Source of the DNA: Bacillota bacterium
GTDB lineage: Bacteria > Bacillota_I > Bacilli_A > Izemoplasmatales > Hujiaoplasmataceae
NCBI GenBank assembly: GCA_029559915.1
Contig: JAKPZU010000062.1
Coordinates: 1 to 52,593, forward strand
Reading direction: 5' to 3'
DNA: 52,593 nt
Part shown: positions 1,869 through 47,477 of the stretch, piece after piece
Layout: each line of letters starts with the position of its first letter
Position numbering within the stretch: the first letter of the stretch is position 1
Notes under the pieces: model-generated
The model's database searches: none
What the model was told of the DNA's origin: nothing
The model's input: the letters and a program-made list of their open reading frames with translations, nothing else
Made by a program: the position numbers and the translations under genes

Positions 1869-1888
1869 ATTGATAATAAAAATAATTG

Positions 1889-1917
1889 TTGCAAAAAGTT
1901 CGAAAATTAGATAAAAT
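1889..1917 (+). promoter_or_regulatory. sigma-70-type promoter (TTGCAA, 17 nt spacer, TAAAAT)
   Basis: Hexamers at 1889-1894 and 1912-1917 upstream of the 1938 ORF. Confidence 0.45.
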
Positions 1918-1937
1918 GATAATGCTGAGGTGAAGAT

Positions 1938-2447: not shown

Positions 2448-2455
2448 TTTTTTTG

Positions 2456-2484
2456 GGAGCTAGATTAGATAGCTCCTTTTTTTT
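2456..2484 (+). terminator. intrinsic terminator
   Basis: GGAGCTA / TAGCTCC stem with 7-nt loop, followed by T8. Confidence 0.75.
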
Positions 2485-2546
2485 GGCTTTTTTTCCGGAA
2501 ATATGGTAGAATATTAATAAGTTTAGAAGGAGTATACAGGATAATT

Positions 2547-4748
2547 ATGGACTATATCAATGTTGATTTAATTAAACAAGTAGCCAAAGCCCAAGGAATT
2601 ACCGTAAAACAAATCGAAGCGGTTTTAGCTATGCTTGAAGAGGGAAACACTGTTCCTTTCATCGCGCGTTATCGTAAAGAAAAAACCGGTTCTTTGGACG
2701 AGGAACAAATCAGGGCAATCCAAAAAGAATATGAATATGGCAAATCCTTGCAAGAGAGAAAAGAAGACATCATTCGCCTAATAGACGAGAAAGGCATGCT
2801 GACTGAAGAACTGCGGAAGGATATCAATGCCTGCGACAAATTAGTCGATTTGGAAGATATTTACCGTCCGTTCAAAGAAAAGAAAAAGACGAAAGCAACT
2901 GAAGCAATTAGAATGGGGCTTGAACCTTTAGCTAACCTAATTTTGACTTTTCCGGAAGTTGATGACATCAACAATATGGCTTTACCATATTTGAATGAAG
3001 AAGTTCTAACTGTAGAAGACGCTTTGCAGGGTGCTAAGTACATCATCGCCGAGATGGTTTCTGACAATGCCGATTACCGTAAATGGATTAGGAATTATAC
3101 CAACAAAAATGGAAAAATTGTTACTAAAATAAAAAAAGACGCAGAAGATCAATATCAAACTTATCAAAATTATTATGATTTTGAAGAAAATTTGAATACT
3201 ATCAAGTTATATAGGATATTAGCAATCAATCGAGCTGAGAAAGAAAAAATTATCACTGTAAAAATTGATGTTGATACAGATGAAATTTTTACTTATTTGA
3301 ATAAAAAAGTCATACAAGACCATAAATCAAATGTAAATCCTTTGATTGAAGAATCTTACATCGACGCCTATAAAAGACTAATTAGCGGATCTATCTCCAG
3401 GGAAATTAGAACTGATTTTACTGATCGTGCCGAGAATCAAGCAATTCACATTTTTTCTGAAAATTTGAGATCTTTGTTGCTGCAACCACCATTAAAAGGT
3501 CAAATGGTTTTAGGAATAGACCCAGCTTTTAGAACTGGTTGCAAATTAGCGGTAATTGATCGTTTCGGCAAGTTCATCGACAAAGGTGTTATCTATCCTC
3601 ATGAGGCATATATTGGCCAAAACGTTAACCCTAGGCAAATAGAAGAAGCGAAGAAAATATTAAAGAGTTTTATTTCTAAATATAAGATAGACATTATCGC
3701 AATCGGGAATGGTACTGCCTCGAGAGAAACAGAAAGCTTTGTTGCCAACATGTTAAAAGAATTGGATAGACAAGTCAAGTATGTAATCGTCAATGAAGCA
3801 GGCGCTTCAGTTTATTCAGCGTCTGATTTAGCCAGAGAAGAGTTTCCTGATTTCCAAGTTGAAGAAAGATCTGCAGTTTCGATTGCCAGAAGAATGCAGG
3901 ATCCATTGAGCGAATTGGTTAAAATCGATCCTAAATCAATTGGTGTTGGTCAGTATCAACATGATGTCACGCAAGCAAAATTATCCGATTCATTGGATTT
4001 TGTGGTGACAACAGCGGTAAATCAAATTGGTGTTAACGTAAATACTGCCTCGGCATCGCTTTTGCAATACGTTTCTGGCTTGTCGGGTAAAGTTGCAAAA
4101 AACATTGTCGATAAAAGAGAAAACCACGGACCTTACAATAGTAGAAAAGAATTGATGGATGTTCCAAGTTTGGGAGCCAAGACTTTCGAACAAGCTATAG
4201 GTTTCTTGAGGATTTTCAATTCAATGGAAATTTTGGACAAAACACCAATCCATCCGGAAAGTTATGATTTGGCTTATCAACTCCTTGGATATCTCAAACT
4301 CGATGCCGAAGAAATAGGAACGGAAAAATGTAGACTGATAATAGCTAAAGCTGACAAAACACAAATCGCCAATCATTTCAATCAGAGTTTGGTCTTGATA
4401 GAAGATATTTTGGATGCATTCGTTTCGCCAACCAGGGATATCAGGGATGATTTTCCACAACCGCTCTTAAAAAGCGAACTGCTAAGTTTGGAAGATTTGA
4501 AAGTGGATATGGAATTGCAGGGAACAGTAAGAAATGTTGTAGATTTTGGCGCATTTATCGACGTTGGAATTAAGGAAGCCGGATTAGTACATATTTCCAA
4601 ACTTAGTAAATCTTATGTTAAACATCCTCTGGATGTAGTCAGTGTTGGCGATATCGTTAAAGTCTGGGTTGTCAGTGTTGATTTGGCAAGAAAAAGACTG
4701 CAGTTGACAATGGTCAATCCGAAAGAAAAGCCAAGTTTTGTAAATTAG
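2547..4748 (+). CDS. tex: Tex-like transcription accessory protein (YqgF/RuvC-like, HhH and C-terminal S1 domains)
   Basis: 733 aa. N-terminal VPFIARYRKE motif, central YqgF-like GIDPAFRTGCK, and C-terminal S1 domain (GTVRNVVDFGAFIDVG...GLVHISKLS). Confidence 0.9.
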   Translation: MDYINVDLIKQVAKAQGITVKQIEAVLAMLEEGNTVPFIARYRKEKTGSLDEEQIRAIQKEYEYGKSLQERKEDIIRLIDEKGMLTEELRKDINACDKLVDLEDIYRPFKEKKKTKATEAIRMGLEPLANLILTFPEVDDINNMALPYLNEEVLTVEDALQGAKYIIAEMVSDNADYRKWIRNYTNKNGKIVTKIKKDAEDQYQTYQNYYDFEENLNTIKLYRILAINRAEKEKIITVKIDVDTDEIFTYLNKKVIQDHKSNVNPLIEESYIDAYKRLISGSISREIRTDFTDRAENQAIHIFSENLRSLLLQPPLKGQMVLGIDPAFRTGCKLAVIDRFGKFIDKGVIYPHEAYIGQNVNPRQIEEAKKILKSFISKYKIDIIAIGNGTASRETESFVANMLKELDRQVKYVIVNEAGASVYSASDLAREEFPDFQVEERSAVSIARRMQDPLSELVKIDPKSIGVGQYQHDVTQAKLSDSLDFVVTTAVNQIGVNVNTASASLLQYVSGLSGKVAKNIVDKRENHGPYNSRKELMDVPSLGAKTFEQAIGFLRIFNSMEILDKTPIHPESYDLAYQLLGYLKLDAEEIGTEKCRLIIAKADKTQIANHFNQSLVLIEDILDAFVSPTRDIRDDFPQPLLKSELLSLEDLKVDMELQGTVRNVVDFGAFIDVGIKEAGLVHISKLSKSYVKHPLDVVSVGDIVKVWVVSVDLARKRLQLTMVNPKEKPSFVN

Positions 4749-5549: not shown

Positions 5550-5640
5550 GGAGTAATACTCAAGAGGCCGAAGAGGCGCCCCTGCTAAGGGTGTAGGTCG
5601 GGAAACCGGCGCGAGAGTTCGAATCTCTCTTACTCCGCCA
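5550..5640 (+). tRNA. tRNA-Ser (anticodon GCU), CCA encoded
   Basis: Acceptor GGAGTAA/TTACTCC, anticodon loop CTGCTAA, long variable arm, T-arm GAGAGTTCGAATCTCTC, 3' GCCA. Confidence 0.9.
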
Positions 5641-5650
5641 GACAAAAAAT

Positions 5651-5680
5651 AAAACGCCATTTCTTGGCGTTTTTTCTTTT
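5651..5680 (+). terminator. intrinsic terminator after tRNA-Ser
   Basis: AAAACGCCA / TGGCGTTTT stem, 5-nt loop, T-rich tail. Confidence 0.8.
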
Positions 5681-5737
5681 ATAGCAATTGATTGAGATTT
5701 GTATTGAAGATATAATTACTCTATAAGGAGTTTTTAT

Positions 5738-6586
5738 TTGAAAGTAATAGAGTGGGTTTTACAAGGCGATGAATCATCGGTTTATTCAGTAAAAAGAATT
5801 TACTGAAAACCAATAATGAGGAACTACAATTTATACAATCTAAATTGCCCGACCGAGGTATAGCAAATTTCATTTTGAACCAAAAAGATTAAAGTACCGA
5901 TTTGTGAGGCAATTGTATTTACTCGTCCAAATATGCTTCAACTCATTGTACGCTTTGGGAATTATGTCAATTAGGAGTTGATTTAAGCAACATTAGATTA
6001 AGCAATTACATCGCAAAACTTACAGAAGAAATGAGGAAAGTTTTAGGTAAAGTAAAAGCATGTCGACATTAGGATTTATTTATTGTCGCAATGATTCTTA
6101 AAATTCGATTGAAAGGTAAAATTAACGATAATAAAAACAAGGAAATGATTGACTACATTATTGAATACCAAATGAAAGATGGAGGGTTTAATTATGCGGG
6201 GGAAAGAAGGCCATTTCTGAAACAATCCTCTCTTCACACAACATTATTGGTATTGGATACTTTTGCATCTTGTCGCGAAAACAATAACCTTTATCGTTCT
6301 AAGGAAATTGAATTAGCTACGAAGCAATGTATTGAATATATATTGACCAAAAGCCTATCCAGATCGGTTTCTACCGAAAAAAAACATTCATGAAGACCTG
6401 TTAAAGTGCCTGTTTCCATATGGATGGAAGTACAATATCATGAGAGCGTTATTTTTGATAAGTTACTTTGATTATGCTTATGATCATAGAATGGATGAAG
6501 CATTGAATATACTCATTCAAAGAGCCAATGATTACAGAAGAATTAACGCTTTTAGCCTATCTGCTGGCAAACATAATTTAATTTAG
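5738..6586 (+). pseudogene. decayed gene for a prenyltransferase/terpene-cyclase-repeat-like protein
   Basis: One protein-like reading runs across three frames. It starts at TTG 5738 (RBS AAGGAG 5725-5730) and shifts frame near 5798-5803. It has in-frame TAA 5890, TGA 5905 and TAG 6070. A second frameshift falls at the A8 run 6377-6384, and the final stop is 6584-6586. Fragments such as VIEWVLQGDES, YQMKDGGFNY and FPYGWKYNIMRAL resemble that repeat family, recalled from memory rather than searched. Confidence 0.6.
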
Positions 6587-6739
6587 ACAAGAAGAAATAA
6601 TTATTGCCGATTCAATACAACATATAGATTTTTGTATATTATAAAAAAATATCGGAATATCAAAAATATATTAGTAAACATTTCTTATTATAAAACTGAA
6701 AAGATAATGATATAATGTATTAAATAGGAGGATGTGTCT

Positions 6740-17072: not shown

Positions 17073-17819
17073 TTATTTCTTACTTTGAATTTTGTAAGAA
17101 ACTTTTAACAAAAGTTTTGTTGGGCCGAATCTTAACATGAATCGCAAAAATTTCATCTTGAAGCTAGGGATTACGAGAATTTTGTTTTTATCCAACCCTT
17201 TTAGGATACTTTCAACACACTTTTCTACAGATAAACCTTTCATTTTCGGGTTAGCATTGGCGACTTCGTTAAATTCGGTTTTAACTGGACCAGGACAAAC
17301 AGTCATTATGTTGATAGGCACCTTATTTTGTTTAAATTCGTATGCCAATGCCATTGAATAATTGTAAACATATGATTTACTTGCCGCATAACTAGCAAGT
17401 AAAGGGGTTGGCAAAAACGCTGCCATCGAACTTATATTTATAATTGTGCCGCGACTCATTATCTTTGATATTTCCTTTGTAAGATAATGAACTGTTTTAA
17501 TGTTCAAATCTAGCATCTGAAACTCTTTGGCGGTGTCATTGTCAAGTGATGCGCCATAAAGGCCGAATCCAGCATTGTTTACAAATAAATCGATATTTCT
17601 ATTTTTGAAAGTATTTAGTAGAATTTTGCACTCATCTAAATTGGTTAGATCCAAGGACAAAATTTCAACTTTTATATTTACGTTTCTTAATAACTTACTA
17701 ATTTCCAGCAATCTTTCCGTCCTTCTCGCTATTAAGACTAAATCGTATTTTCTTTCCGCTAATCTCAGCGCAAGTTCTCTTCCAATACCGGATGAAGCTC
17801 CCGTAATTACAGCTAACAT
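17073..17819 (-). CDS. classical short-chain dehydrogenase/reductase, substrate unknown
   Basis: TGASSGIG cofactor motif, NNAG, and catalytic S...YAASK. The GGAGG lying inside the ORF-track start (ATGGAGGTTAACATG) favours ATG 17819. Confidence 0.8.
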   Translation of the reverse strand: MLAVITGASSGIGRELALRLAERKYDLVLIARRTERLLEISKLLRNVNIKVEILSLDLTNLDECKILLNTFKNRNIDLFVNNAGFGLYGASLDNDTAKEFQMLDLNIKTVHYLTKEISKIMSRGTIINISSMAAFLPTPLLASYAASKSYVYNYSMALAYEFKQNKVPINIMTVCPGPVKTEFNEVANANPKMKGLSVEKCVESILKGLDKNKILVIPSFKMKFLRFMLRFGPTKLLLKVSYKIQSKK

Positions 17820-17915
17820 GTTAACCTCCATTGTTACAAATAAAATTATATCATATATTTTGTTTTATTGTAAAAACAAGTGATAAATGTTCAATCAATT
17901 TCTATATTTACGGTG

Positions 17916-17944
17916 TTGACAACGCTTACATTATTAAGTATAAT
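17916..17944 (+). promoter_or_regulatory. consensus sigma-70 promoter (TTGACA, 17 nt spacer, TATAAT) of the lysine operon leader
   Basis: Perfect hexamers at 17916-17921 and 17939-17944. Confidence 0.7.
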
Positions 17945-17960
17945 TACTGTGTAATTGAAT

Positions 17961-18125
17961 ACACACAGAGGCGCGAAATATTGGTATTAAATCTCATTTT
18001 TATTTTGGACGGATACAGATTTAAGAAGGAATGTTTCGCCGAAAGATTTGATTAGTCTATAAGTCAAAGTCTTGGTATTTAAACAAACAGTTTGAATACT
18101 GCCATTTGAACTAATGGAGAGCTGT
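17961..18125 (+). promoter_or_regulatory. lysine riboswitch (L-box / LYS element) aptamer
   Basis: Conserved L-box blocks occur in the right order and spacing: AGAGGCGCGAA at 17967-17977, GCCGAAAG at 18038-18045, CTGCCA...TGGAGAGCTGT at 18099-18125. P1 candidate is ACAG 17965-17968 pairing with CTGT 18122-18125. It lies directly upstream of lysine catabolic genes. Confidence 0.8.
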
Positions 18126-18158
18126 TATATTTTATAATATAATGGCTCTTTTATTTTT
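18118..18158 (+). terminator. intrinsic terminator (riboswitch expression platform)
   Basis: 13-bp stem 18118-18130 / 18137-18149 (AGAGCTGTTATAT / ATATAATGGCTCT, two G-U pairs), 6-nt loop, then TTTTATTTTT. Its 5' arm overlaps the aptamer 3' end. Confidence 0.75.
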
Positions 18159-18177
18159 ATAAAAGGAGGAGAAACAA

Positions 18178-18600
18178 ATGAAAAGTTTTACTATCGAAGA
18201 GATCAAAATTGGAGACAAAGCCGAAACAAAAAAATGTTTTAATGAGACGGATGTTTTGGATTTTGCCAGAATTTCAACCGATTTTAATCCGGCGCATGTG
18301 GATAAAGCCTATGCAGAAAAAACAATATTTAAAAAACAAATTGTTCACGGAATGTTGGTCGGTTCGCTGTTTAGTTCCCTATTTGGAGTTCAGTTGCCGG
18401 GATTAGGTAGCATCTATACAAAACAGTCTTTAAAATTCACAAAACCTGTTTATTTTGGCGACGAAATAACCGCAACTGTTATTGTAAAAGAATTGATAAC
18501 AGACAAAAATCGTGTGGTTTTTGATTGTGTGGCAAAAAACCAAAATAATGATGTTGTCATCATTGGCGAAGCAGAAATCATGCCGCCGAGGAGGGTGTAA
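18178..18600 (+). CDS. MaoC/PhaJ-like (R)-specific enoyl-CoA hydratase (hotdog fold)
   Basis: 140 aa. DFNPAHVD...IVHGML hydratase motif and strong RBS AAAGGAGGAG. Confidence 0.75.
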   Translation: MKSFTIEEIKIGDKAETKKCFNETDVLDFARISTDFNPAHVDKAYAEKTIFKKQIVHGMLVGSLFSSLFGVQLPGLGSIYTKQSLKFTKPVYFGDEITATVIVKELITDKNRVVFDCVAKNQNNDVVIIGEAEIMPPRRV

Positions 18601-18603
18601 AAT

Positions 18604-19245
18604 ATGAAAAAATTTATAAAAAAGAATGAATTTATCAATCTGCTTAAAGATGAGATGACTATTTCTGTCGGTGGATTTTTGACAAACGGAACACCAGAAA
18701 AACTGATTGATTTAGTTATTGAATCCAAAGTTAAGGATTTGACTATTATTTGTAATGATGGGGGCTTTGAAGATAAAGGTGTCGGTAGATTAATTGTTAA
18801 CAATCAAGTTAAGAAATTAATCGCTTCCCATATAGGAACCAATCCTTATGTTGGCAAATTAATGCAGGAGTCCAAAATTGAAGTGGAACTTGTTCCGCAA
18901 GGGACTTTAGCCGAGAGAATTAGGGCTTTTGGAGCTGGCTTAGGGGGTATACTAACGCCTACCGGATTACAGACTATTGTTGAAAATGGAAAACAAGTTT
19001 TGGAAGTCAAAGGGCGGAAATATTTATTGGAAGAAGCACTTGGAGCTGATTTGGCTTTAATCGGCGGTGCTGTCGCTGATGACTATGGCAACCTAAAGTA
19101 TTCACAAACTATGAGGAATTTTAACCCTGTAATGGCTACGGCTGCCGAAATTGTTGTTGTCGAGGCTGTAAAAAGAGTCAGTGAAATTGACCCTGAAGAT
19201 GTCATAACCCCTTTCCCATTTGTTGATTACATTTTGGAGGATTAA
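18604..19245 (+). CDS. atoD: acetoacetate:butyrate/acetate CoA-transferase subunit A
   Basis: 213 aa. GGF...[22 protein letters not shown]-like block ([21 protein letters not shown]) typical of the 3-oxoacid CoA-transferase alpha subunit. Confidence 0.88.
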
Positions 19246-19249
19246 TCTT

Positions 19250-19894
19250 ATGAACGAAAAAGAAATAATAGCTTCAAGAATTGCATTAGAATTAGGCGAT
19301 GGCGATTTGGTTAATTTAGGAATAGGCATTCCGACTATGGTAGCTGATTACATACCTGAAGGCAAACACGTAACATTTCAAGCCGAAAATGGAATTATCG
19401 GGCTTGGACCTTTGACTGAAGAAGAAACCAATATTGTTAATGCAGGAGGAATGAAAGCGACTATAAAAAAAGGTGGAGCTTTTATCGATACAATTACATC
19501 CTTTACCTTTATTCGAGGCGGACATATTGACGTTACCGTCCTTGGCGCATTGGAAGTTGATCAAGAGGGTTCAATAGCTTCGTGGATAATTCCAGGGAAA
19601 AAGGTTCCGGGTATGGGGGGAGCTATGGATTTGGTTACTGGAGCTAAAAAAGTCATAATTGCATTAAAACATACAAATAATGGTCAATCCAAAGTTTTGA
19701 AGAAGTGCAGCTTACCTCTTACCGCAGCGAATCAAGCAAATCTAATAGTCACAGAGATGGCAGTGATGAAAGTAGAGAAAGATGGTCTCCATTTGATGGA
19801 AGTACACCCAGATTATTCTATAGAAGACGTAATAAAGGCGACGGAAGCTGATCTGATTATAAATGATGTTCAAAAAATGAAAGGAGTAAATTAA
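19250..19894 (+). CDS. atoA: acetoacetate:butyrate/acetate CoA-transferase subunit B
   Basis: [15 protein letters not shown], and GMGGAMDLV (active-site Glu region). GGAGG RBS precedes ATG 19250. The ORF-track start 19220 lies inside atoD. Confidence 0.88.
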
Positions 19895-20280
19895 TGAAAA
19901 CGACATTAAAACTTAGAATGTCCAACCATGATGCTCATTATGGAGGAAACTTAGTTGACGGCGCGAGAATATTAGGTTTATTCGGTGACGCCGCAACTGA
20001 ACTTTTAATTAGAATGGACGGAGATGAGGGGCTCTTTAGAGCTTACGAGTCGATAGATTTTTTAGCTCCAGTATATGCAGGGGATTTTTTGGAAATAGAA
20101 GCTGAAATTGTTGAAGCCGGAAACACTTCGAGAAAAATGGAGTTCTTCTGCTATAAAGTAATAACTGCAAGACCGGATATTGCTCCTAGTGCTTGCGACG
20201 TTTTAAAAGATCGGCTTTTGACAACAAAAGCTATAGGCACTTGTATTGTGCCTAAGGGGTTGCAAAGACATGATGGATAA
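19894..20280 (+). CDS. kal: 3-aminobutyryl-CoA ammonia-lyase
   Basis: 128-aa hotdog protein. [18 protein letters not shown] and APVYAGDF blocks as in Kal of lysine-fermenting anaerobes (recalled). Its context between atoA and kce supports the call. Confidence 0.75.
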
Positions 20281-21097
20281 ATTGATTATTACATGCGCAA
20301 TTTCAGGTGCAGAAGTCACAAAAGAACATAATCCTGCGGTTCCGTATACAATTGATGAAATGGTTGAAGCGGCTCATCAAGCTTATTTAGCTGGTGCTTC
20401 AATTATCCATTTGCATGCTAGATATGATGATGGAAAACCAACACAAAACAAAGATAGGTACCGAGAAATAGTAAAATCCATAAAAGACAAATGCCCAGAG
20501 TTGATTGTTCAAGTCTCTACTGGTGGTGCGGTTGGAATGAGCAGAGAAGAAAGATCGGATGTTTTGAACATTAAACCGGAGATGGCGACGCTTGATTGTG
20601 GTACATTGAATTTTGGTGGCGATGAAATTTTCATAAATACTGAAAATGATATTATTTATTTTGCCAATAAAATGAATGAACTTGGTGTGATGTACGAAAT
20701 GGAATGTTTTGAAAAAGGGCATATTGACACTACGCTGAGATTGATAAAAAAAGGTATTATTAAAGGTCATCTTCATTATAGCTTTGTTTTAGGTGTAAAC
20801 GGAGGGATGACAGGAGAAGAAAGAGATTTTATCTTTTTAAAAGAAAGTTTACCAGCTGGATCAACATACAGTGTTGCTGGAATTGGTAGATATGAATTTA
20901 CATTAGCCGAGCACTCAATTAAACATGGAGGACATGTCAGGGTAGGGCTCGAAGACAATATTTATATTGAAAAAGGAGTTCTGGCAAAATCAAATAGAGA
21001 ACTTGTAGAAAAAATTGTAACAATGGCAAAAAAATATAATCGTGAGATAGCTACGCCAAAAGAAACTAGACAAATGTTGAAAATGGGAGAAAAATAA
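20270..21097 (+). CDS. kce: 3-keto-5-aminohexanoate cleavage enzyme (BKACE/DUF849 family)
   Basis: [14 protein letters not shown]...HLHAR...STGG TIM-barrel motifs of the BKACE family. ATG 20270 follows AAGGGG. Confidence 0.85.
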
Positions 21098-21098
21098 A

Positions 21099-22136
21099 AT
21101 GAACAATCTATGTAAATATGGTACACACAGAGTAATATCACCAGTAGGAGCCCTACCACAAACAGCAGAAAAAATTAACAATGAAATGATTTGCCAAGAC
21201 AATGAAATATTGGTAGATGTGGATACTCTTAATATTGATTCAGCTTCTTTCACACAAATAAAAAGTGTATGCAATTCTGACACCGAAAAGATGAAAGAAA
21301 TGATTGAAAACATCGTAAACAATAAGGGTAAGATGCAAAACCCAGTTACTGGAAGCGGTGGAATGTTTTTAGGCAGAATAAAAGAAGTTGGAAAAAACTT
21401 AAAAGTAAAAGTAAAGCCGGGAGACAAGATTGCCTCTTTAGTTTCATTGTCATTGACGCCTCTAAAGATAGAAAAAATATTGAGTATCGATTTAACTAAG
21501 GACCAAGTAAACATCATCGGTCAAGCCATATTGTTTGAAACTGGTATCTACGCACAAATTCCTAATGATTTACCATCGGATATAGTTTTAAGTGCTCTTG
21601 ATGTAGCTGGCGCTGCTGCTCAAGTTGAAAAATTGGTTAAGAAAAATGATACAGTTTTGATTTTAGGCGCTGGTGGAAAATCAGGATTACTATGTGCCTA
21701 CCAAGCTAAAAAAAGTGCTGGTAAAAACGGTAAGGTTATTGCGGTAATTCACTCTGATAGGAGCCGTCACGACTTGGAAAAACTGGGTGCTTGCGATCAC
21801 ATTATCGTTGGTGACGCCACCAAACCAATGGAGATTTATCACAAAGTTAAGGAAGTAGCACCTGATATGGTGGATGTGACAATAAATGTTGTTAATGTTC
21901 CAAACACAGAAATGACATCCATTTTACCAACAAAAAGTAAAGGAACAATTTACTTCTTCTCAATGGCTACATCTTTTACCAAAGCCGCTTTAGGAGCTGA
22001 GGGAATAGCTTCCGAAGCTTTAATGATTATAGGCAATGGTTATACCAAAGATCATGCGGAATTCACATTGAACTTATTAAGAGAATCGAAAGAGTTATAT
22101 GAAATTTTCCAAGAAAGATATGGAAGTGTTAAATAA
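21099..22136 (+). CDS. kdd: L-erythro-3,5-diaminohexanoate dehydrogenase
   Basis: 345 aa. Rossmann motif LILGAGGKSG and position between kce and kamA. Confidence 0.75.
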   Translation: MNNLCKYGTHRVISPVGALPQTAEKINNEMICQDNEILVDVDTLNIDSASFTQIKSVCNSDTEKMKEMIENIVNNKGKMQNPVTGSGGMFLGRIKEVGKNLKVKVKPGDKIASLVSLSLTPLKIEKILSIDLTKDQVNIIGQAILFETGIYAQIPNDLPSDIVLSALDVAGAAAQVEKLVKKNDTVLILGAGGKSGLLCAYQAKKSAGKNGKVIAVIHSDRSRHDLEKLGACDHIIVGDATKPMEIYHKVKEVAPDMVDVTINVVNVPNTEMTSILPTKSKGTIYFFSMATSFTKAALGAEGIASEALMIIGNGYTKDHAEFTLNLLRESKELYEIFQERYGSVK

Positions 22137-23383
22137 TGAAAATTACTAACGACAGCTATTTGGAAAGAAGGGCCAAGTATTTCCCTGAAGTAAAAGACAG
22201 CGATTGGTCTGATTGGCGTTGGCAAGTAAGAAATAGAATAAAAACTGTTGAAGACTTGGAAAAGTATATTCCTTTATCTCAAAAAGAAAAAAATGACATT
22301 TTTAGCGTTCTTTCTAAATTTAGAATGGCTATAACTCCTTATTATCTTTGTTTAATAGACCCAGATAATATTGATTGCCCAATGAGAAAGCAAGCAATTC
22401 CAAGCATTTATGAGATGAATATCGGTGAAAATGATATGCTTGACCCTTTAGCTGAAGACACTGATTCGCCGGTTCCGGGGCTGACACATCGTTATCCGGA
22501 TAGAGTTTTGTTTCTGATTACGGATATGTGTTCCATGTATTGCCGTCACTGTACAAGAAGAAGGTTTGCTGGCCAAAAAGATCAAAAGATGCCTCAAGAT
22601 AGAATAGATTTAGCTATTGATTATATCAGCAAACACCCTGAAATCAGAGATGTTTTACTGTCTGGTGGTGACGCGCTGTTAGTCAGCGATGAAATCCTTG
22701 AAGGAATAATCAAGAGATTAAGAGAAATTGACCATGTCGAAGTAATTCGATTGGGGACTAGAACACCGGTAGTGATGCCACAAAGAATAACTGATGATTT
22801 TGTCAATATGTTAAAAAAATATCATCCAATTTGGCTTAACACGCATTTTAATCATTATGACGAAATTACCATCGAATCTAAAGCCGCTATGGAGAAATTA
22901 GCTAATGCCGGCGTGCCTTTGGGCAATCAATCAGTATTACTTAGAGGAATAAATGATTCAGTTGAAATTATGAAGAAATTAGTTCAAAGATTGGCTTATA
23001 TGAGGGTCAGGCCTTATTATATCTACCAATGCGATCTTTCTTTGGGTATTGAACATTTCCGTACACCGGTATCAAAAGGTATAGAAATTATCGAGGGACT
23101 GAGAGGACACACATCGGGGTTTTGTGTTCCGACTTTTGTTGTTGATGCACCTGGAGGTGGCGGTAAAATACCAGTAATGCCAAATTACGTAATATCACAA
23201 GCGCCTGGGAAAATAGTGCTTAGAAATTACGAAGGCGTAATTTCGACATATTCAGAACCAAGTAATTATGTCAATAAAGAACATTATGAAGATGCGAACG
23301 GTGTAAGTGGTTTGTTAGCGGGAAAGAAAATTTCTTTGGAACCAAAAGATTTGGAAAGAAGGAAAAGAACATCAAAAGAATAA
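22136..23383 (+). CDS. kamA: L-lysine 2,3-aminomutase (radical SAM, PLP)
   Basis: 415 aa. CSMYCRHCTRR radical-SAM cluster motif, DVLLSGGDAL, and C-terminal zinc-site region. The length matches clostridial KamA. Confidence 0.92.
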   Translation: MKITNDSYLERRAKYFPEVKDSDWSDWRWQVRNRIKTVEDLEKYIPLSQKEKNDIFSVLSKFRMAITPYYLCLIDPDNIDCPMRKQAIPSIYEMNIGENDMLDPLAEDTDSPVPGLTHRYPDRVLFLITDMCSMYCRHCTRRRFAGQKDQKMPQDRIDLAIDYISKHPEIRDVLLSGGDALLVSDEILEGIIKRLREIDHVEVIRLGTRTPVVMPQRITDDFVNMLKKYHPIWLNTHFNHYDEITIESKAAMEKLANAGVPLGNQSVLLRGINDSVEIMKKLVQRLAYMRVRPYYIYQCDLSLGIEHFRTPVSKGIEIIEGLRGHTSGFCVPTFVVDAPGGGGKIPVMPNYVISQAPGKIVLRNYEGVISTYSEPSNYVNKEHYEDANGVSGLLAGKKISLEPKDLERRKRTSKE

Positions 23384-23388
23384 TCGAA

Positions 23389-24372
23389 TTGTTAAAAGAT
23401 TATCAAATCATCAGTATTGTCGGAAATACAAAAAACGCAGGCAAGACCACCGTTATGAATGAGTATTTAAGTCATTTTGATAGGTCGAATTTGGCAATTA
23501 CGTCTATAGGATTGGATGGAGAAGAATTAGACCAGGTGACCAATTTAGAAAAGCCACAAATACTTGTTAGGCCAGGTTATTTGGTTGCCACTGCATACGA
23601 CACATTGGAAAAGTTTACATGCGACTTTGAAATCATCAAGACTTTAGATATAGCTACATCTATTGGTAATGTGGTAATCATTAAGATAAATTCTATAGGT
23701 AAAGCTTTAGTTGCCGGACCTGCAAAAGTAAAAGATATGGCAATACTGATATCAGAACTAAAAAACTATCAATTGGAAAAAATTATAATTGATGGTGCTT
23801 TTTCGCGTCATGTTTTTGCCAAGATTACACAAGCTACAATCCTGGTAGTGGGAGCTAATTATTCCCGTGACATCGATGTGGTGGTTAATGATGCAGTTAT
23901 TTTGTATAAAAAGTTTTCACTAAAGTATCATAATCTTAAAGACTTTTGTTTTGGCGATAAAATCTGTTTAATCAATAATGACGACATAGTGACAAATCTT
24001 GAATATTCGAGTTTAATAGGTAATGTGGATAGCTTTTTCAATTTAGATTTCGAAAATATATCCAAAGTATATTTTCCAAAATCCTTAACCAATAAATTTG
24101 TGGAAAGATTGATTCTTGAAAGAAGAAGATGTAAGTTTGACATCATTGTGGATTCACCAATTAATATCCAAGTGCACCACAACTTATTAAAAAAACTATT
24201 TCAGCTGGAAAATCAGCTTTATGTAATCAATCCCCTTAACGTGTCTTTAGTTTGTTACAATCCAGTGTCACCACTGGGCTATGAATTTGACAATGAAGAT
24301 TTCAAGAATAAATTGAGTACAAGTTTAGGTAGAGAAGTATTTAATGTGTTAGAAGGTGAACGTGATGAATAA
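23389..24372 (+). CDS. P-loop NTPase of unknown function, candidate aminomutase reactivase/accessory ATPase (KamC-like?)
   Basis: 327 aa. Walker-A-like GNTKNAGKTT at residues 12-21. Wedged between kamA and kamD. TTG start with no obvious RBS, and 8-nt overlap with kamD. Confidence 0.5.
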   Translation: MLKDYQIISIVGNTKNAGKTTVMNEYLSHFDRSNLAITSIGLDGEELDQVTNLEKPQILVRPGYLVATAYDTLEKFTCDFEIIKTLDIATSIGNVVIIKINSIGKALVAGPAKVKDMAILISELKNYQLEKIIIDGAFSRHVFAKITQATILVVGANYSRDIDVVVNDAVILYKKFSLKYHNLKDFCFGDKICLINNDDIVTNLEYSSLIGNVDSFFNLDFENISKVYFPKSLTNKFVERLILERRRCKFDIIVDSPINIQVHHNLLKKLFQLENQLYVINPLNVSLVCYNPVSPLGYEFDNEDFKNKLSTSLGREVFNVLEGERDE

Positions 24373-25921
24373 ACTTAATATAAATCAAAATGTAGTTGAA
24401 TCTTGTCGTAAGTATGCAAAAATAATTGCAAACGACGTCCAGAGTTTCATAGATCAACATACAACTGTTAGTGTTGAACGAGCAACTCTAAGACTTTTAG
24501 GAGTCGATGGTACTGATGAGTTCCAAGTTCCGCTGCCAAACAGAATAGTTGATGATATTGTAAAAAATGGAAATATATCTTTAGGCGTCAGCACTTACTT
24601 GGCAAGCGCATTAAAAGGTTCAGGATTAAATTTATCGGATTTTTTGAATGCCTATAAAAATGAAGAAGTAAATGTTTGTGGTCATGAAATTTTAGATAAA
24701 GATGCAACATTCAACATTCTTAATCCTTACTATGATTCCAGTTTGAAAAGAATTTTAGCAAATAAGGCTCAAAGAACCGACTTTTTGACAAAATATTCTC
24801 GTGAAAAAACCGATATTTACGTGATTGTGGCTACAGGAAATATTGATGAAGATGTTATACAAGCTGTTTCAGCAGCCGAGGCTGGAGCTGACATAATTGC
24901 AGTAATCAGATCTACTGGACAATCATTGCTGGACTATGTACCGTACGGCAAAACAACTGAAGGTTTTGGCGGAACATTTGCAACCCAAGAGAATTTTAAA
25001 ATTATGAGAAAAGCCTTGGATGAGGTGAGTTTTAAACTAGGTAGATATATTTATTTAGTTAATTACGCTTCAGGACTTTGCATGCCTGAAATAGCCGCAA
25101 TGGGAGCCTTGGAGAGACTGGACGTACTATTGAATGATAGCATGTACGGTATAATTTTCCGTGACATCAATATGCAAAGAACATTTGTAGATCAATACTT
25201 TTCCCGTCTTATAAATGCATATGCCGGGATAATCATCAATACAGGTGAAGACAATTATCTCACAACATCTGATGCTGTTGAGGAAGCTCACACAGTGACT
25301 GCTTCGCAATTCATAAATGAAGCATTTGCAAAAAAAGCTCATTTACCAAGTAAATTAATGGGTTTAGGGCATGCTTTTGAAATTGATCCAGAAGTTGAAG
25401 ATAGCTTTTTGCTGGAATTATCGCAAGCACAACTGGCTAGAGAGATTTTCCCGGATGCGCCACTTAAGTATATGCCGCCAACAAAACATATAAATGGCAA
25501 TATCTTTAGAGCTTATCAACAAAACGTGATGTTCAACATGGTTACAACAATCACCGGACAGTCAATTCATCTCTTGGGTATGATGACCGAGGCTATACAT
25601 ACACCATATCTATCAGATCGTTATTTGGCAATCAAGAACGCAAAAATGATTCAGAAATCAATGAAATCATTAGGTGATGAAATTAGTTATAAACCAGAAG
25701 GTATCATTCAAAAACGAGCTGTTGAAGTTTTAAATTCTGCCGAAAAACTGCTAAAACAGATAGCTGAAGACGGAATGTTCAACAGTTTGGCCAAAGGAGT
25801 TTTCGCTCAAACAAAAAGAAGTGAAATTGGCGGAAAAGGATTATCCGGAGTTTTTAGAAAGAATAAGAATTATGTAAATGTAGTTCTAGAAAAAATGGAG
25901 GAATCCTTCAATGAAGATTAA
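24365..25921 (+). CDS. kamD: beta-lysine/D-lysine 5,6-aminomutase alpha subunit
   Basis: About 518 aa TIM-barrel subunit. Its size and its pairing with a B12-binding beta subunit support the call. RBS GAAGGTGA precedes ATG 24365. Confidence 0.85.
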   Translation: MNKLNINQNVVESCRKYAKIIANDVQSFIDQHTTVSVERATLRLLGVDGTDEFQVPLPNRIVDDIVKNGNISLGVSTYLASALKGSGLNLSDFLNAYKNEEVNVCGHEILDKDATFNILNPYYDSSLKRILANKAQRTDFLTKYSREKTDIYVIVATGNIDEDVIQAVSAAEAGADIIAVIRSTGQSLLDYVPYGKTTEGFGGTFATQENFKIMRKALDEVSFKLGRYIYLVNYASGLCMPEIAAMGALERLDVLLNDSMYGIIFRDINMQRTFVDQYFSRLINAYAGIIINTGEDNYLTTSDAVEEAHTVTASQFINEAFAKKAHLPSKLMGLGHAFEIDPEVEDSFLLELSQAQLAREIFPDAPLKYMPPTKHINGNIFRAYQQNVMFNMVTTITGQSIHLLGMMTEAIHTPYLSDRYLAIKNAKMIQKSMKSLGDEISYKPEGIIQKRAVEVLNSAEKLLKQIAEDGMFNSLAKGVFAQTKRSEIGGKGLSGVFRKNKNYVNVVLEKMEESFNED

Positions 25922-26648
25922 ACCTTATGGTGATACGCTAAATGATGGCAAGGTGCAGGTTAGTTTTACTCTACCAGTTCCAAAGTCAGCCAAGGGAATA
26001 GCAGCTGCAAAAGAAATAGCGAAAGAAATGGGGATAATTGATCCTTCCGTTGTCCATGCGGAAAATTTGAGCGAGGGTTTCAGTTTTTATGTTGTTTATG
26101 GTAGCGTAAAAGCCGTCATTGATTTTGATAGGATTCACGTCGAGGAAATAACCAATCACGCTCTGGAGCGAGAAGAGATAGAAAAAATTATCAAAGACGA
26201 GTTTGACCGAAATATTGTATTTGTCGGAGCTTCTACAGGTACTGACGCACATACAGTAGGTATTGATGCGATCATGAACATGAAAGGGTTTGCTGGTCAT
26301 TATGGTCTTGAAAGATATCAAGGCATTGACGCTTATAATTTAGGCTCTCAAGTTTTGAATGAAGATTTTGTAAAATTTGCTCGTGATAAAAACGCCGATG
26401 TGCTTTTAGTTTCTCAAACCGTGACACAAAAGGAAGTTCACCTAAAAAACATGATTGAGCTTGTAGAGTTATTGGAATCTGAAGGAATGAGAGATAAAGT
26501 AATACTTGTTGCCGGTGGTGCAAGGATTACTCATGAATTAGCAAAAGAATTAGGTTATGATGCTGGATTTGGACCGGGAAGTTTTGCGGAGGATGTTGCA
26601 ACTTTTGCGATTACGGAACTTTTAAATCGAAAAAGAGGTGAAAAATAA
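25911..26648 (+). CDS. kamE: beta-lysine/D-lysine 5,6-aminomutase beta subunit (B12- and PLP-binding)
   Basis: 245 aa. Base-off/His-on motif GTDAHTVG, then VSQT and VAGG elements of the cobalamin-binding Rossmann domain. Confidence 0.88.
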   Translation: MKIKPYGDTLNDGKVQVSFTLPVPKSAKGIAAAKEIAKEMGIIDPSVVHAENLSEGFSFYVVYGSVKAVIDFDRIHVEEITNHALEREEIEKIIKDEFDRNIVFVGASTGTDAHTVGIDAIMNMKGFAGHYGLERYQGIDAYNLGSQVLNEDFVKFARDKNADVLLVSQTVTQKEVHLKNMIELVELLESEGMRDKVILVAGGARITHELAKELGYDAGFGPGSFAEDVATFAITELLNRKRGEK

Positions 26649-27172
26649 TGCCAATAGACAAAATAGATCAAATAGCAACCAAATTTGGTGATTCGGGTAA
26701 TTCAAAAGATTTCGAAAACAAGATATATAGAAAATCCCATATTTTATTTGAAACACTAGGAACAATGGATGAATTCAGTTCCTATTTAGGCATAGCTTAC
26801 CATCAATCCCATATTGAATTCATAAAAGAAATTCAAATGCATTTGCAAAACATAAATTCTCTTGTTGCCAGTGACTACGATTCGGATTTGTATAATATTT
26901 TAATACAGATTAAGCCTGAAGATGTCGAACTACTGGAAGTAAAAATCCAAGAGTTTTTATTAAAAAAACCTTTGGAAAGTAGATTTTATTTGCCTGGAAG
27001 CGAAAAATCTGAACCCGGGGCTTACATTGATTATGCTCGTGCTTTGGCAAGAAAAGCTGAAAGACAACTAAATGCATTTGTCGATTATACAAAAAGAGAA
27101 GATTTGGAACCAGCAAAGAAATATTTAAACAGATTGAGTGACTATCTATTCGTGCTTTCTTTCAACGTTTAA
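26648..27172 (+). CDS. PduO-type ATP:cob(I)alamin adenosyltransferase
   Basis: 174 aa. GDSG near the N-terminus, LGTMDEFSSYLG, and C-terminal LNRLSDYLFVLS, characteristic of PduO-type ATR. TAATG overlap with kamE. Confidence 0.8.
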   Translation: MPIDKIDQIATKFGDSGNSKDFENKIYRKSHILFETLGTMDEFSSYLGIAYHQSHIEFIKEIQMHLQNINSLVASDYDSDLYNILIQIKPEDVELLEVKIQEFLLKKPLESRFYLPGSEKSEPGAYIDYARALARKAERQLNAFVDYTKREDLEPAKKYLNRLSDYLFVLSFNV

Positions 27173-27220
27173 ATTGGGTAATTGAGCTTGTTTAATTTCT
27201 AAGATTTTTTCTTTAAATCT

Positions 27221-27253
27221 TATAATCATTATGTTATAATGTTATATGTTATA
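27221..27253 (+). promoter_or_regulatory. promoter region of the glm operon with three tandem TGTTATA heptamers
   Basis: TATAAT at 27221-27226 and extended -10 TGTTATAAT at 27232-27240. TGTTATA repeats start at 27232, 27240 and 27247. Confidence 0.5.
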
Positions 27254-27284
27254 AAAACGCTTACAAGTTTGTGGGGAGATTAGT

Positions 27285-27689
27285 TTGAAAACAATAGTTA
27301 TAGGGGTTATCGGTGCTGATGTACATGCGGTTGGAAATAAAATAATTGAATACACATTAAAAAAATCTGGATATAATGTTGTCAATATCGGGGTTTTATC
27401 TACTCAAGAAGACTTTATCAACGCAGCAATAGAAACAAATGCTGATATGATTATGGTTTCTTCTTTATATGGTCATGGTGAAATTGACTGTAGGGGAATG
27501 AGAGATAAGTGTGTCGAATCAGGTATCGAAAACATTCTTTTATATGTTGGCGGAAATATCGTTGTCGGCAAGCAAGACTTTGATGAAGTTAAAAAAAGAT
27601 TCTTGGAGATGGGATTCAATAGAATCTATCCTCCGGGAACATCCATAGATGATGCCTTAAAAGATATTAAAACAGATTTAGGAGAGTAA
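27285..27689 (+). CDS. glmS: glutamate mutase (methylaspartate mutase) sigma subunit, B12-binding
   Basis: 134 aa. GADVHAVG (DxHxxG), VSSL and VGGN motifs. TTG start after GGGGAG. Confidence 0.9.
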
Positions 27690-27690
27690 A

Positions 27691-29100
27691 ATGGCAAACT
27701 ATTTGCTAATAGATTTTGGCTCAACATTCACTAAATTATGTGCTGTTGATTCTGAAAAATGTGATATATTGGGAACTGCTTCCGACTTTACGACAGTTGA
27801 AACGGATATTACAGAAGGTTATCAAAAAGCTCTTAAAAAATTATTTGATAGAATCGGCCAGAAAATTGAGTTTGAGCAAATCATTGCTTGTTCATCAGCT
27901 GCTGGCGGCCTAAAAATGGCCGCTATTGGTCTAGTTAAAGAACTAACTGTGGAAGCCGCTAAGAGAGTTTGTCTTGGTGCTGGTGCGAAAGTTGATTTAG
28001 TTTTCTCCCATCATTTAAACAATAGTGAAATCAAACAGATTATTGATATGAAAATTGATATTATTCTATTAGCTGGCGGCTCTGATGGCGGTAATTCAGA
28101 AGCTGTGATTTTTAATGCTGACTTGTTGGGTAAGGCAGGAATAAAAATTCCTGTCGTCTTTGCGGGGAACAAATCTGCTCAAGATCAAATAAGTGAAATT
28201 TTCAATAAATATAACATGAATGGTCACATTTGTGAAAATGTCATGCCATCAATCAACGTTCTAAACATCAATAGTGCTAGAGATAAAATTAGAGAAATAT
28301 TCTTAAAACAAATTATTGAAGCCAAAGGAATCAAAAAAATTGAGTCAGAGATTAATCGAGTTATTTTACCAACGCCGTCAGCTGTATTGGAAGCAGCCAA
28401 GTTATTGTCCGAAGGTTATTTGGAAGAAAGTGGTCTAGGAGAAATAGTGGTTGTTGATATTGGTGGAGCAACTACAGATTTATATTCCATATGCACTTCA
28501 ACCAAAAGAAGTGATGTAATTGTCCAAGGCTTGGAAGAACCTTTTGCGAAAAGAACCGTTGAAGGCGATTTAGGCATGAGATACTCGGCTCCTGGTATTG
28601 TTAAATCGTTGTCAGAAAGAGAAATTAACTTCATCAATAAAGAAAAAGGCGTTGATATTGTAGAGGAAGTCAATCGCCGTTATAAAAATGTAAAATTGCT
28701 ACCAGAAAATCAACATGACGAATTTATTGATCAATTTTTGGCGGAAATGTGTGCGTACAGATCTATGCATAGACATTGCGGCAGAATTACTGAAGTTTTG
28801 ACCCCGATGGGAAAGGTTTTCAATCAAACAGGAAAAGATTTATCTGAAGTTAGTTATGTTATTGGTTCAGGTGGAGTAATAATTAATTCAAAACACCAAT
28901 ATGAAATTTTGCGTCAGACTACTAATATTTTAAATAATCCTTCAGAACTTAGACCTAATGATCCTGAGTTCTTAATTGACCATGACTATATTATGTTTGC
29001 CATGGGGTTGTTGGCAAAAATTCAACCGATGGTAGCATTAAAAATAATGAAAAATCATATAACCCAAGTTAGAGGTAATCAAGATGAAACTAGCAAATAA
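27691..29100 (+). CDS. glmL: glutamate mutase accessory/reactivase protein GlmL (MutL)
   Basis: 469 aa. [10 protein letters not shown] and [14 protein letters not shown]-type phosphate motifs. Sits in the canonical position between the S and E subunits. Confidence 0.85.
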
Positions 29101-30550
29101 AAGATTGACAGAACAAGAATTTTTAGAACAAAGATTAGAAGTTTTAAAGACATGGCCTACCGGTAATGATCCAGAATTAAATTTGGATATAGCCGTCGAA
29201 TATTTAAGAAATGTTCCTGAAGAAAAAAACTTTGCAATTGTTTTGAATAAAGCTAAAGCAACAAATGATACGCTCATTCAACCTCGTGGTGGGGTTCCCG
29301 TTTTGGCGGAGCATATCAAACTTTTGAATTATCTGTCTGCTTCGGGAGCAGATTGTTTACCTTCAACTATCGATAGCTACACTAGACATAACCGTTATCA
29401 AGAAGCCCAAAAAGGTCTGGAAGAATCTGAAGCAAAATGTAGGGCCTTATTAAATGGCTTTCCGGCTGTGAATCATGGAGTTGCCGGTTGTAAGAAAGTG
29501 CTTGAGTCAGTTGATAAACCGGTAGAAGCTAGACATGGGACACCAGACGCTAGATTATTATCGGAAATTATTCATGCAGCCGGTTGGACATCGAATGAAG
29601 GTGGGGGTATTTCCTATAATATTCCATATGCAAAATCAATACCTCTAGAAGTTTCAATCAAGAATTGGCAGTACGTTGACCGCTTGGTCGGTTATTATGA
29701 AGAAAGAGGCATCAAGATTAATCGTGAACCTTTTGGCCCTTTGACAGGAACTTTGGTTCCACCGGCAATTTCTAATACAGTAATGATTATTGAAACTTTA
29801 TTGGCAGCGGAACAAGGGGTTAAAAATATTACTGTAGGTTATGGAATGGGTGGGAATCTAGTTCAAGATGTAGCGGCAGTTCATTCTTTGTACAATCAAA
29901 CAATCGAATATCTTGACCGTTTTGGTTATAAAGACATGGAGATATCCACTGTTTTCCATCAGTGGATGGGTGGATTTCCAAGCGACGAAGCTGAAGCTAT
30001 GGCACTAATTTCCTATAGTTCTTCAGTAGCTGCGTTATCTAAAGCGACTAAACTAATAACCAAATCACCTCATGAATCCGTCGGTATTCCAACTATGGAA
30101 GCTAATGGCTTAGGTGTAAAAGCTTCAAAGTTTATAGTAAATATGTTAAAAGATCAAACTATTTCTGAGAGTGATGATCTCAGAATGGAAATAGATCAAA
30201 TTAAAAGAGAAGTCAATTGTTTAATCGAAACTGTTTTGAAAGTGGGAGAAGGGGACTTGGCTGTCGGTACTGTTAGAGCTTTTGAGCAAGGTTTGATGGA
30301 TATCCCTTTTGCGCCAAGCAAGTACAATGCCGGTAAAGTTTTCCCCGCAAGAGATAACGAAGGCAGAATAAGAATTCTTGATTTTGGAAACTTAGCAATG
30401 TCTGAGGAAATTAAAGAATTCCATTATAAAAAAATTAAACAAAGAGCAGATTCGGAAGAAAGAGAAATTTCGTTCCAGTTGACTGTGGATGATATTTACT
30501 CCGTAAGTAAGGGAAAATTAATAGGAAGACCTTTGAGGAATTTAAAATGA
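29084..30550 (+). CDS. glmE: glutamate mutase epsilon (catalytic) subunit
   Basis: 488 aa, matching the clostridial GlmE size. QPRGG...TIDSYTR...[10 protein letters not shown] blocks. Confidence 0.9.
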
Positions 30551-31788
30551 AAATAAAAGACGTTGTATTGTCAAAATCATATACTGGATTTTTCTTTGAT
30601 GATCAAAAATCAATAAAAAATGGAGCCGTTAATGATGGCTTCTTTTATGAAGGAACGCCGATAATAGAAGGATTTAGGACAATCAGACAATGTGGTGAAG
30701 CAATATCTATTCAGTTGATATTGGAAAATGGTGAAGTGGGAATCGGTGATTGTGCAGCGGTACAATATTCAGGAACTGGCGGACGTGATCCGTTGTTTTT
30801 GGCGGATAATTACATTCCTTTCTTGGAAGAAAAAATAGTGCCGCTTATGATTGGTCTAGATGTTAGTCAATTTAGACCTTTGGCAGAAAGATTTGACAGA
30901 ATGACCATTGATGGCAAAAAATTACATACGGCAATTAGATATGGTTTAACACAGGCGTTTCTATCAGCTGTCGCTAAAAGTTCACGACTGACTATGGCAG
31001 AAGTAATCAGAAAAGAGTATAATATAACTGAAAAAGAATACAAAGCCATTCCTGTTTTCACTCAGAGTGGCGACGACCGTTATAATAATGTCGACAAGAT
31101 GATTATTAAGGAAGCGGATGTTTTGCCTCACGCCCTAATCAACAATGTTGAGAAGAAGTTAGGAAAAAACGGAGAGTTATTGCTGGAATATGTGAAATGG
31201 ATCAGGAATAGAATCATCAGGTTCCGTACCAGAGAAAATTACAAACCCGTTCTACACATTGACGTTTATGGCACCATCGGCATTGCTTTCAACAATGATT
31301 TGGATAGAATTATTGATTATCTATTAGAACTGGAAAAGGCAGCTCATCCTTTCATTTTGAGAATTGAAGGCCCTATTGATGGTGGCAACAAGGAAGATAC
31401 GATAAAGTATCTCAAAGATTTAACTCGTATGATAGACGAAAAAAATTCAACTTTGGAAATTGTGGCTGACGAATGGTGCAACACTTTGGAAGACATTATC
31501 GATTTTGCTGATCAAAAAGCTGGACATATGCTGCAAATAAAGACACCAGATTTAGGCGGAGTCAATAATGTTTGCGAAGCAATTGTTTATTGCAATAAAG
31601 TAGGTATTGGCAGTTATTGCGGTGGTACCTGCAATGAAACAAATATTTCCTCTGAAGTAACAACCAATATTGCCATCGCTTGTATGGCCGATCAATGTTT
31701 GGCGAAACCAGGCATGGGAGTTGACGAAGGCTATATGATTGTAAAAAATGAAATGAATCGAGTTTTGGCAATAACAAAGAAGAGGTAA
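30547..31788 (+). CDS. mal: 3-methylaspartate ammonia-lyase (beta-methylaspartase)
   Basis: 413 aa enolase-superfamily protein. MKIKDV...GFFFDDQ N-terminus and the KTPDLGG region. ATGA overlap with glmE. Confidence 0.9.
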
Positions 31789-31793
31789 AAATT

Positions 31794-32048
31794 ATGAAAG
31801 GTATCGCAGGAAGCAAAGAATCCAATGATTGTTTGATAAGCATAGAAACAAATGACAAGACCATTATTGAGATTAATAGTATTGTTGGAGCTTTTTTCTA
31901 TAATCAGATTCTTAAAACGATAGAAGATACTTTAACTGAACAAGGATTGAAAAATGTGAAGGTTGTCGTTGTTGATAAAGGAGCTTTGGATTATACCATC
32001 AAGTCTCGGTTGTTGACGGCGATTGAAAGGATGAAGGAAGATGTTTAG
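31794..32048 (+). CDS. citD: citrate/citramalate lyase acyl carrier (gamma) subunit
   Basis: 84 aa. AGSKESND prosthetic-group serine context and DKGALDY motif. Confidence 0.85.
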   Translation: MKGIAGSKESNDCLISIETNDKTIIEINSIVGAFFYNQILKTIEDTLTEQGLKNVKVVVVDKGALDYTIKSRLLTAIERMKEDV

Positions 32049-35834: not shown

Positions 35835-35835
35835 T

Positions 35836-35912
<77 letters not shown>

Positions 35913-47476: not shown

Positions 47477-47477
47477 A

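Follow-up and report, generated by a model that had tools for sequence, protein, structure and literature searches.

A lysine riboswitch with predicted ON logic ahead of a lysine fermentation operon, and its conserved design in Izemoplasmatales-like bacteria

A transcriptional lysine riboswitch with ON logic very probably stands ahead of a lysine fermentation operon in the bacterial DNA analysed here, a stretch of 52,593 nucleotides that we call the window. This assignment is made from the sequence and from comparison with homologous leaders, and the direction of regulation and its kinetic control are what we infer for the window's own switch. The kind itself is already known, since papers of 2007 and 2017, following work of 2003, describe ON lysine riboswitches ahead of lysine-catabolic genes. 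That ON type formerly rested on a few comparative predictions; the conservation of the ON design, base for base, in 66 distinct and diverse leaders now places the prediction on firm comparative ground. What is new in the sub-family represented by the window is its lineage, a gene order that begins with a MaoC-like gene, its size and uniformity, a minimal P1 helix that is frozen in sequence, and an operator at the promoter.

The leader is served by a sigma-70-type promoter at 17916-17944 (on the forward strand, as are all window features below unless marked otherwise). Its -35 box (TTGACA, 17916-17921) and -10 box (TATAAT, 17939-17944) are separated by a 17-nt spacer and match the consensus at 12 of 12 positions, in keeping with the original prediction, which had called the promoter perfect. 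The three conserved sequence blocks which it had placed in the leader, AGAGGCGCGAA at 17967-17977, GCCGAAAG at 18038-18045 and TGGAGAGCTGT at 18115-18125, likewise all match the sequence. Transcription is predicted to start near 17951, and an equivalent promoter lies 30-50 nt 5' of the aptamer in the homologous leaders. At the other end, the sequence and the list of open reading frames (ORFs) give a Shine-Dalgarno motif GGAGG (18165-18169) and the ATG of the first gene (18178-18180), which together span 18165-18180.

The operon that begins there comprises eleven genes (18178-27172), which are closely packed or overlapping in the ORF list. Its first gene codes for a MaoC-like dehydratase (18178-18600), and is followed by the genes of 3-oxoacid CoA-transferase A (18604-19245) and B (19220-19894). 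Next are kal (3-aminobutyryl-CoA ammonia-lyase, KAL; 19894-20280), kce (3-keto-5-aminohexanoate cleavage enzyme, KCE; 20246-21097), kdd (3,5-diaminohexanoate dehydrogenase, KDD; 21099-22136), kamA (lysine 2,3-aminomutase, AblA/KamA; 22136-23383), kamB (KamB reactivase subunit; 23389-24372), and kamD and kamE, the alpha (24356-25921) and beta (25911-26648) subunits of lysine 5,6-aminomutase, and the operon closes with a cobalamin adenosyltransferase gene (26648-27172). The dehydratase, the two CoA-transferase genes and the adenosyltransferase were assigned with Pfam, and the other seven products (KAL, KCE, KDD, AblA/KamA, KamB and both subunits of lysine 5,6-aminomutase) exceed the curated cut-offs of NCBIfam equivalog models. 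What had been described as a lysine-degradation operon is therefore a full fermentation set, and as judged from its gene content it is the complete pathway from lysine to acetate, butyrate and ammonia.

Between promoter and operon lies a lysine riboswitch aptamer with a five-helix junction, P1-P5, at 17958-18132. Scanning with the Rfam Lysine model (RF00168), which had been proposed as a check of the original prediction, gives 80.7 bits (E 1.4e-19) against a gathering score of 30; this is far above chance, and the match runs end to end over model positions 1-182, which identifies a genuine member of the class. All four junction blocks (AGAGG.GC, GCCGAA, CUG.CA and GGAG.GCU) are found in the window, aligned with high posterior probability. 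P1 has just four canonical pairs, formed by ACAG (17965-17968) and CUGU (18122-18125) as originally proposed and in agreement with both the sequence and the cmscan alignment, while the two outer P1 pairs of the Rfam model are non-canonical in the window. The cmscan alignment and the folds mark the CUGU strand as the switching segment, common to P1 and the terminator, and together with the terminator scan they place the J5/1 junction core AGAG (18118-18121) in both the ligand-binding junction and the terminator 5' arm. The L2 loop bases GGAC (18007-18010) can make a kissing contact with the L3 loop bases GUCU (18055-18058). Such a loop-loop contact is characteristic of lysine riboswitches, as crystal structures and mutational work have shown.

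Homologous leaders were collected in two ways. A KDD alignment run against species-representative genomes yielded 80 loci, and an alignment of the first-gene product run against metagenomes yielded 80 others; aptamers in the fetched loci were then found with a covariance model (R1) built from eight aptamers. Rfam gathering scans with default filters missed genuine aptamers in three loci (L010, L012 and L021), all of which were found by R1. Nine genome loci carry the aptamer, eight of them in Bacilli-, Mollicutes- or Izemoplasma-type bins and one (L005) in an uncultured Bacteroidales bin, a placement that we take as probable mis-binning. Among the metagenomic homologues, 64 of 80 have the aptamer just 5' of the first gene, and the G+C content of the aptamer ranges from 0.24 to 0.67. 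The total is 66 distinct leaders, that of the window and 65 others, which come from Izemoplasmatales-like and Acholeplasma-like bacteria and also from organisms of higher G+C. The KDD proteins and contigs nearest to those of the window belong to Izemoplasmatales, Tenericutes or Bacilli MAGs; an assignment to Fusobacterium, which low G+C and neighbouring genes for the fermentation of lysine and glutamate might suggest, is rejected on these grounds. No riboswitch was found within 10 kb of kdd in the loci of Bacteroidales, Clostridia, Fusibacter, Cetobacterium, Thermotogae and Spirochaetes, or in one archaeal locus.

Across this set the helices of the aptamer are maintained by compensatory change. 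An alignment of eight sequences, in which the four junction blocks are invariant, already has 35 of 53 pairs compensated. With all 66 distinct homologues, 93.1% of the cells are paired and compensatory changes occur in 44 of the 53 pairs, compared with 36-52% pairing in slid controls; covariation scores 0.70, compared with 0.22 after shuffling, and none of 500 shuffles reached the observed values. The four pairs of the L2-L3 contact are paired in 91.2% of cells over the 66 sequences, against 16-45% with the partner slid, and both sides have changed in 34 cells. P1 behaves differently, because ACAG/CUGU is identical in 64 of the 66 leaders whereas P2-P5 covary freely, and such a frozen P1 is as expected where its 3' strand must serve two alternative partners. 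A longer P1, made by a 5-bp extension (17957-17961 with 18128-18132), was considered and rejected, being neither conserved nor better than shuffled flanks in 65 leaders.

We infer that the ligand of the window's aptamer is L-lysine. Variants with altered specificity exist in other riboswitch classes, and a sub-family which is bound to one pathway and has an unusual, frozen P1 might instead sense a compound related to lysine, for instance beta-lysine or some other intermediate of the pathway. However, every junction block of the Rfam consensus, from AGAGG.GC and GCCGAA to CUG.CA and GGAG.GCU, is unchanged, the bit score is high over the full length of the model, and the alignment shows no sign of an altered pocket. 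We regard a different ligand as highly improbable, and L-lysine is used as the ligand in what follows.

The aptamer runs directly into an intrinsic terminator, a hairpin of 16 pairs at 18116-18151 with a 4-nt loop (18132-18135), whose U-run TTTTATTTTT lies at 18149-18158 in the sequence and the terminator scan. The hairpin has an energy of -16.9 kcal/mol (z = -4.8 against shuffles) in the scan and the folds. It is also the sole terminator-like site in 17500-18600, and the earlier statement that a single intrinsic terminator precedes the first gene stands for that range, in which the scan gave no second one. Its 5' arm is composed of the last two bases of P5 (18116-18117), the J5/1 AGAG, the CUGU of P1 and six more bases; terminator scan and folds here agree with the original prediction, which had built this arm from the 3' core of the aptamer and its P1 strand. 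Because the arm contains aptamer bases, a closed aptamer and the terminator cannot coexist. The mutual exclusion that had been proposed is indeed seen in the fold, where forcing P1 abolishes the terminator, and without the ten bases that overlap the aptamer the window's hairpin is left with -0.5 kcal/mol. Between aptamer and terminator there is nothing that could serve as a separate antiterminator, the absence of which had also been claimed.

The balance of the two structures was followed with a nearest-neighbour energy model, in which ligand and tertiary contributions are not included. The full leader reaches its minimum free energy (MFE) of -55.0 kcal/mol in a fold with the terminator but without P1, and when P1 is forced the fold is at -46.4 kcal/mol with the terminator lost, a cost of 8.6 kcal/mol. 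Truncated transcripts give a different picture along the way: for those ending at 18127, 18136 and 18140 the MFE structure is the closed aptamer, for the one ending at 18132 a P1-less fold lies 0.1 kcal/mol below the closed aptamer, and from 18145 on the terminator is favoured. Closure of the aptamer can therefore come before the terminator, which then has to break it open, an order known from ON switches such as pbuE. As the terminator is the more stable by 8.6 kcal/mol, read-through would rest on the energy of ligand and tertiary contacts and on kinetics. From the P1 3' strand to the end of the terminator 3' arm there are about 26 nt, a decision window so short that the switch could be leaky.

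These folds also bear on whether the functional aptamer could drive an ordinary OFF switch, in which lysine favours termination or blocks translation, for example against overshoot of the pathway. Forcing P1 releases the 3' arm of the terminator, which together with the U-run pairs with the purine-rich Shine-Dalgarno region (18145-18171), and this could in principle reduce the translation of read-through transcripts; besides, OFF logic is what all lysine riboswitches tested so far have shown, namely those of lysC in B. subtilis and E. coli (PMC11477304). The pairing at 18145-18171 is however most likely a generic complementarity of U-run and purine run, to be expected in any leader of this construction. 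[quoted passage not shown] It would also mean that lysine represses a pathway which consumes lysine, which is physiologically senseless. OFF control is accordingly given very little weight.

The joining of aptamer and terminator recurs throughout the set. The sequence after the aptamer forms a hairpin with a U-run in 66 of 66 leaders, the stem having 14 pairs on average, and in 63 of them the 5' arm of this hairpin begins 1-6 nt 5' of the P1 3' strand. All four P1 3' bases lie inside the terminator arm in 58 leaders, three of them in 7 and two in one (L009), so that at least three of the four are used by the arm in 65 of 66. The mean energy of the hairpin changes from -16.8 +/- 2.4 to -2.0 +/- 1.7 kcal/mol when the ten shared bases are taken away, and with this loss of stability a bound aptamer would leave nothing able to terminate. 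Because a plain MAFFT alignment of the terminator shifted one sub-group by one column, the register was tested by anchoring on one invariant C-G column pair of the MAFFT alignment and counting the pairing outward, and the single-pair anchor avoids circularity in this test. In register, 95.7% of the positions are paired, whereas sliding the partner by 1-3 nt leaves 33-59%, and the five distal positions of the terminator vary among AU, UA, GC and CG. The covariation argues that the terminator helix, in its exact register relative to the aptamer, is under selection.

This conservation has to be set against the thought that the leader is a constitutive attenuator or a decaying relic, terminating a fixed share of transcripts while the true control comes solely from a protein bound at the operator described below. 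The thermodynamic dominance of the terminator, by 8.6 kcal/mol, would agree with such a state, and so would a P1 as short as four pairs with no conserved extension and the high conservation of the cre-like operator. A relic should not, on the other hand, keep 44 of 53 pairs compensated together with its kissing loops and junction in 66 leaders whose aptamers range in G+C from 0.24 to 0.67, nor hold aptamer and terminator in a selected register. We judge a relic or constitutive attenuator to be very unlikely, and a working ON switch remains the preferred reading.

The operator in question is a cre-like site, TGACAACGCTTACA, which lies at 17917-17930 and overlaps the -35 box, and which matches the CcpA-site consensus TGWNANCGNTNWCA perfectly. 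That consensus has one match in the 52.6-kb window, where 0.21 would be expected. A cre-like site is found at the equivalent position in 48 of the 64 leaders that have sufficient upstream sequence, including L002, L011, L012, L016 and most of L081-L160, at 30-50 nt 5' of the aptamer, and of the 55 consensus matches in 1.58 Mb of fetched DNA 51 are at these leader promoters. One sub-group of leaders carries a nearly palindromic form, TGACAGCGCTTTCA, and in about ten leaders a 1-nt insertion disrupts the left half-site with the right half-site kept. A gene for CcpA or another LacI-family protein was not found among the 37 window proteins scanned, all of them encoded ahead of position 44279. From its sequence and position the site at 17917-17930 is probably an operator for a CcpA-like repressor, which would add a second control input, and it suggests catabolite repression of lysine fermentation.

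The mechanism that we propose for the window would begin with RNA polymerase starting near 17951 and making the aptamer, so that the end of P5, the AGAG and the CUGU (18116-18125) emerge last. If lysine is absent, the 4-bp P1 would be weak and the next 26 nt would pair back onto 18116-18125, and the resulting 16-bp hairpin with its U-run would stop transcription ahead of the first gene. If lysine is present, the junction and P1 would be locked in the folded aptamer, and all that could then form is a 6-bp A-U hairpin at a distance of 10 nt from the U-run, so that the polymerase would read into the operon. With the input of a CcpA-type repressor, the operon would be on when lysine is plentiful and the preferred carbon source is absent. 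A still more specific proposal, which we consider a real possibility but stop a little short of calling probable, is a natural two-input gate for amino-acid fermentation in wall-less Bacilli, combining a CcpA-like veto at the -35 box with a lysine-ON licence for elongation that is given only at high lysine. Such a gate would have the minimal frozen P1, and invasion of the ligand-binding junction by the terminator would tune its kinetics to lysine in the millimolar range.

Several known systems share parts of this design. According to a passage in Barrick and Breaker (2007, PMC2258182), which cites Rodionov 2003, some lysine riboswitches have ON logic and bury pieces of the terminator stem, and Mukherjee (2017, PMC5584792) describes the lysine riboswitches before kal/kce genes of C. 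sticklandii, F. nucleatum and Thermoanaerobacter as positively regulated. With these descriptions the ON kind is already known as a prediction, and the original prediction was correct, by the relevant passages of PMC2258182 and PMC5584792, in stating that activating LYS elements had been proposed. So far as their published accounts go, the predicted ON LYS elements of Thermoanaerobacter tengcongensis, Fusobacterium nucleatum and Clostridium sticklandii have the same aptamer class, the same pathway (kal, kce, kam) and the same proposed terminator-burying logic as the window. They differ in their hosts, the window sub-family belonging to Izemoplasmatales-like and Acholeplasma-like wall-less Bacilli and organisms of higher G+C, and in their first gene, which is kal or a pspF-type regulator in place of a MaoC-like dehydratase. 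The 4-bp ACAG/CUGU P1 and the cre-like operator over the -35 box also set the sub-family apart, the expression platforms being compared here by published description. The 2024 review (PMC11477304) names only OFF switches among the demonstrated lysine riboswitches, and a literature search of limited reach found no experimental dissection of an ON-type one.

The B. subtilis lysC L-box has the same fold, core (RF00168) and intrinsic-terminator output as the window, but it is of OFF polarity and controls biosynthetic genes, whereas the window has a predicted ON design ahead of catabolic genes. In the lysC type a separate antiterminator lies between aptamer and terminator, while in the window the terminator 5' arm is the aptamer's 3' end (general knowledge; PMC2258182). 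Closer in mechanism are the B. subtilis pbuE (ydhL) adenine and gcvT glycine riboswitches, in which the 3' part of the aptamer is the terminator 5' arm, as in the window, and the ligand prevents termination, as proposed for the window. These two ON switches control genes of export or degradation (PMC2258182), and they differ from the window in aptamer class and ligand. Lysine-ON riboswitches have also been engineered (Zhou and Zeng 2015, a work that PMC5584792 and bioRxiv 10.64898/2026.06.17.733018 cite); in them a lysine aptamer activates expression, as proposed for the window, but they were selected from natural OFF switches, whereas the predicted ON switch of the window is natural and its terminator mechanism is defined.

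The sub-family shows how a P1 of 4 bp may suffice when the terminator invades the ligand-binding junction, and it suggests a coupling of lysine fermentation to carbon catabolite control in Izemoplasma-like bacteria of sediments and digesters. Its leaders give well-defined constructs for a first biochemical test, and a natural lysine-ON part would be useful for lysine-production strains, for which ON switches have so far been engineered. If the two-input gate is true, it would offer the first chance to dissect a natural lysine-ON transcriptional switch in full, and a ready part for lysine biosensing.

Some individual loci differ from the window in the layout of the operon head. In an uncultured Mollicutes contig (L009:1026-1615) P1 is GUGG/CCAC and the aptamer is directly 5' of kal; this kal gene requires TGA to be read as tryptophan (HYGGWLVDG), which indicates genetic code 4 there, compared with code 11 in the window. 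In the metagenomic contig L092 (1211-3001) an IS110-family transposase gene (1665-2741, reverse strand) is inserted at the Shine-Dalgarno motif, after the riboswitch terminator and before the MaoC gene, and the insertion separates the operon from its leader. At L123:2031-4628 the riboswitch is followed by a short-chain dehydrogenase, MaoC and a thiolase, and L127 and L132 are alike; in the window a short-chain dehydrogenase gene (17073-17831, reverse strand) lies divergently, 5' of the leader.

Next to the lysine operon, the genes at 27285-35668 code for glutamate mutase S, L and E, methylaspartate ammonia-lyase, and CitE-, CitF- and CitX/CitG-like proteins. They are the methylaspartate route of glutamate fermentation and form with the lysine operon an amino-acid fermentation island. 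Within the 113-nt gap between the two operons (27173-27284), the sequence at 27212-27240 resembles a promoter and has an extended -10. Elsewhere in the window, a region of about 1.1 kb (5641-6733) without a long ORF or an Rfam match contains broken ORF pieces at 6091-6393 and 6440-6586 and may be a decayed gene. ARAGORN and a local Rfam scan both detect a tRNA-Ser (GCT) gene at 5550-5640, which the whole-window Rfam gathering scan passed over through the filter effect that also concealed the aptamers of L010, L012 and L021. Further tRNA genes are at 35759-35909, 39057-39138, 48162-48233 and 51609-51947, and a V-type ATPase cluster at 39887-48107 includes the C/AC39 subunit, the I subunit, the proteolipid and further ORFs.
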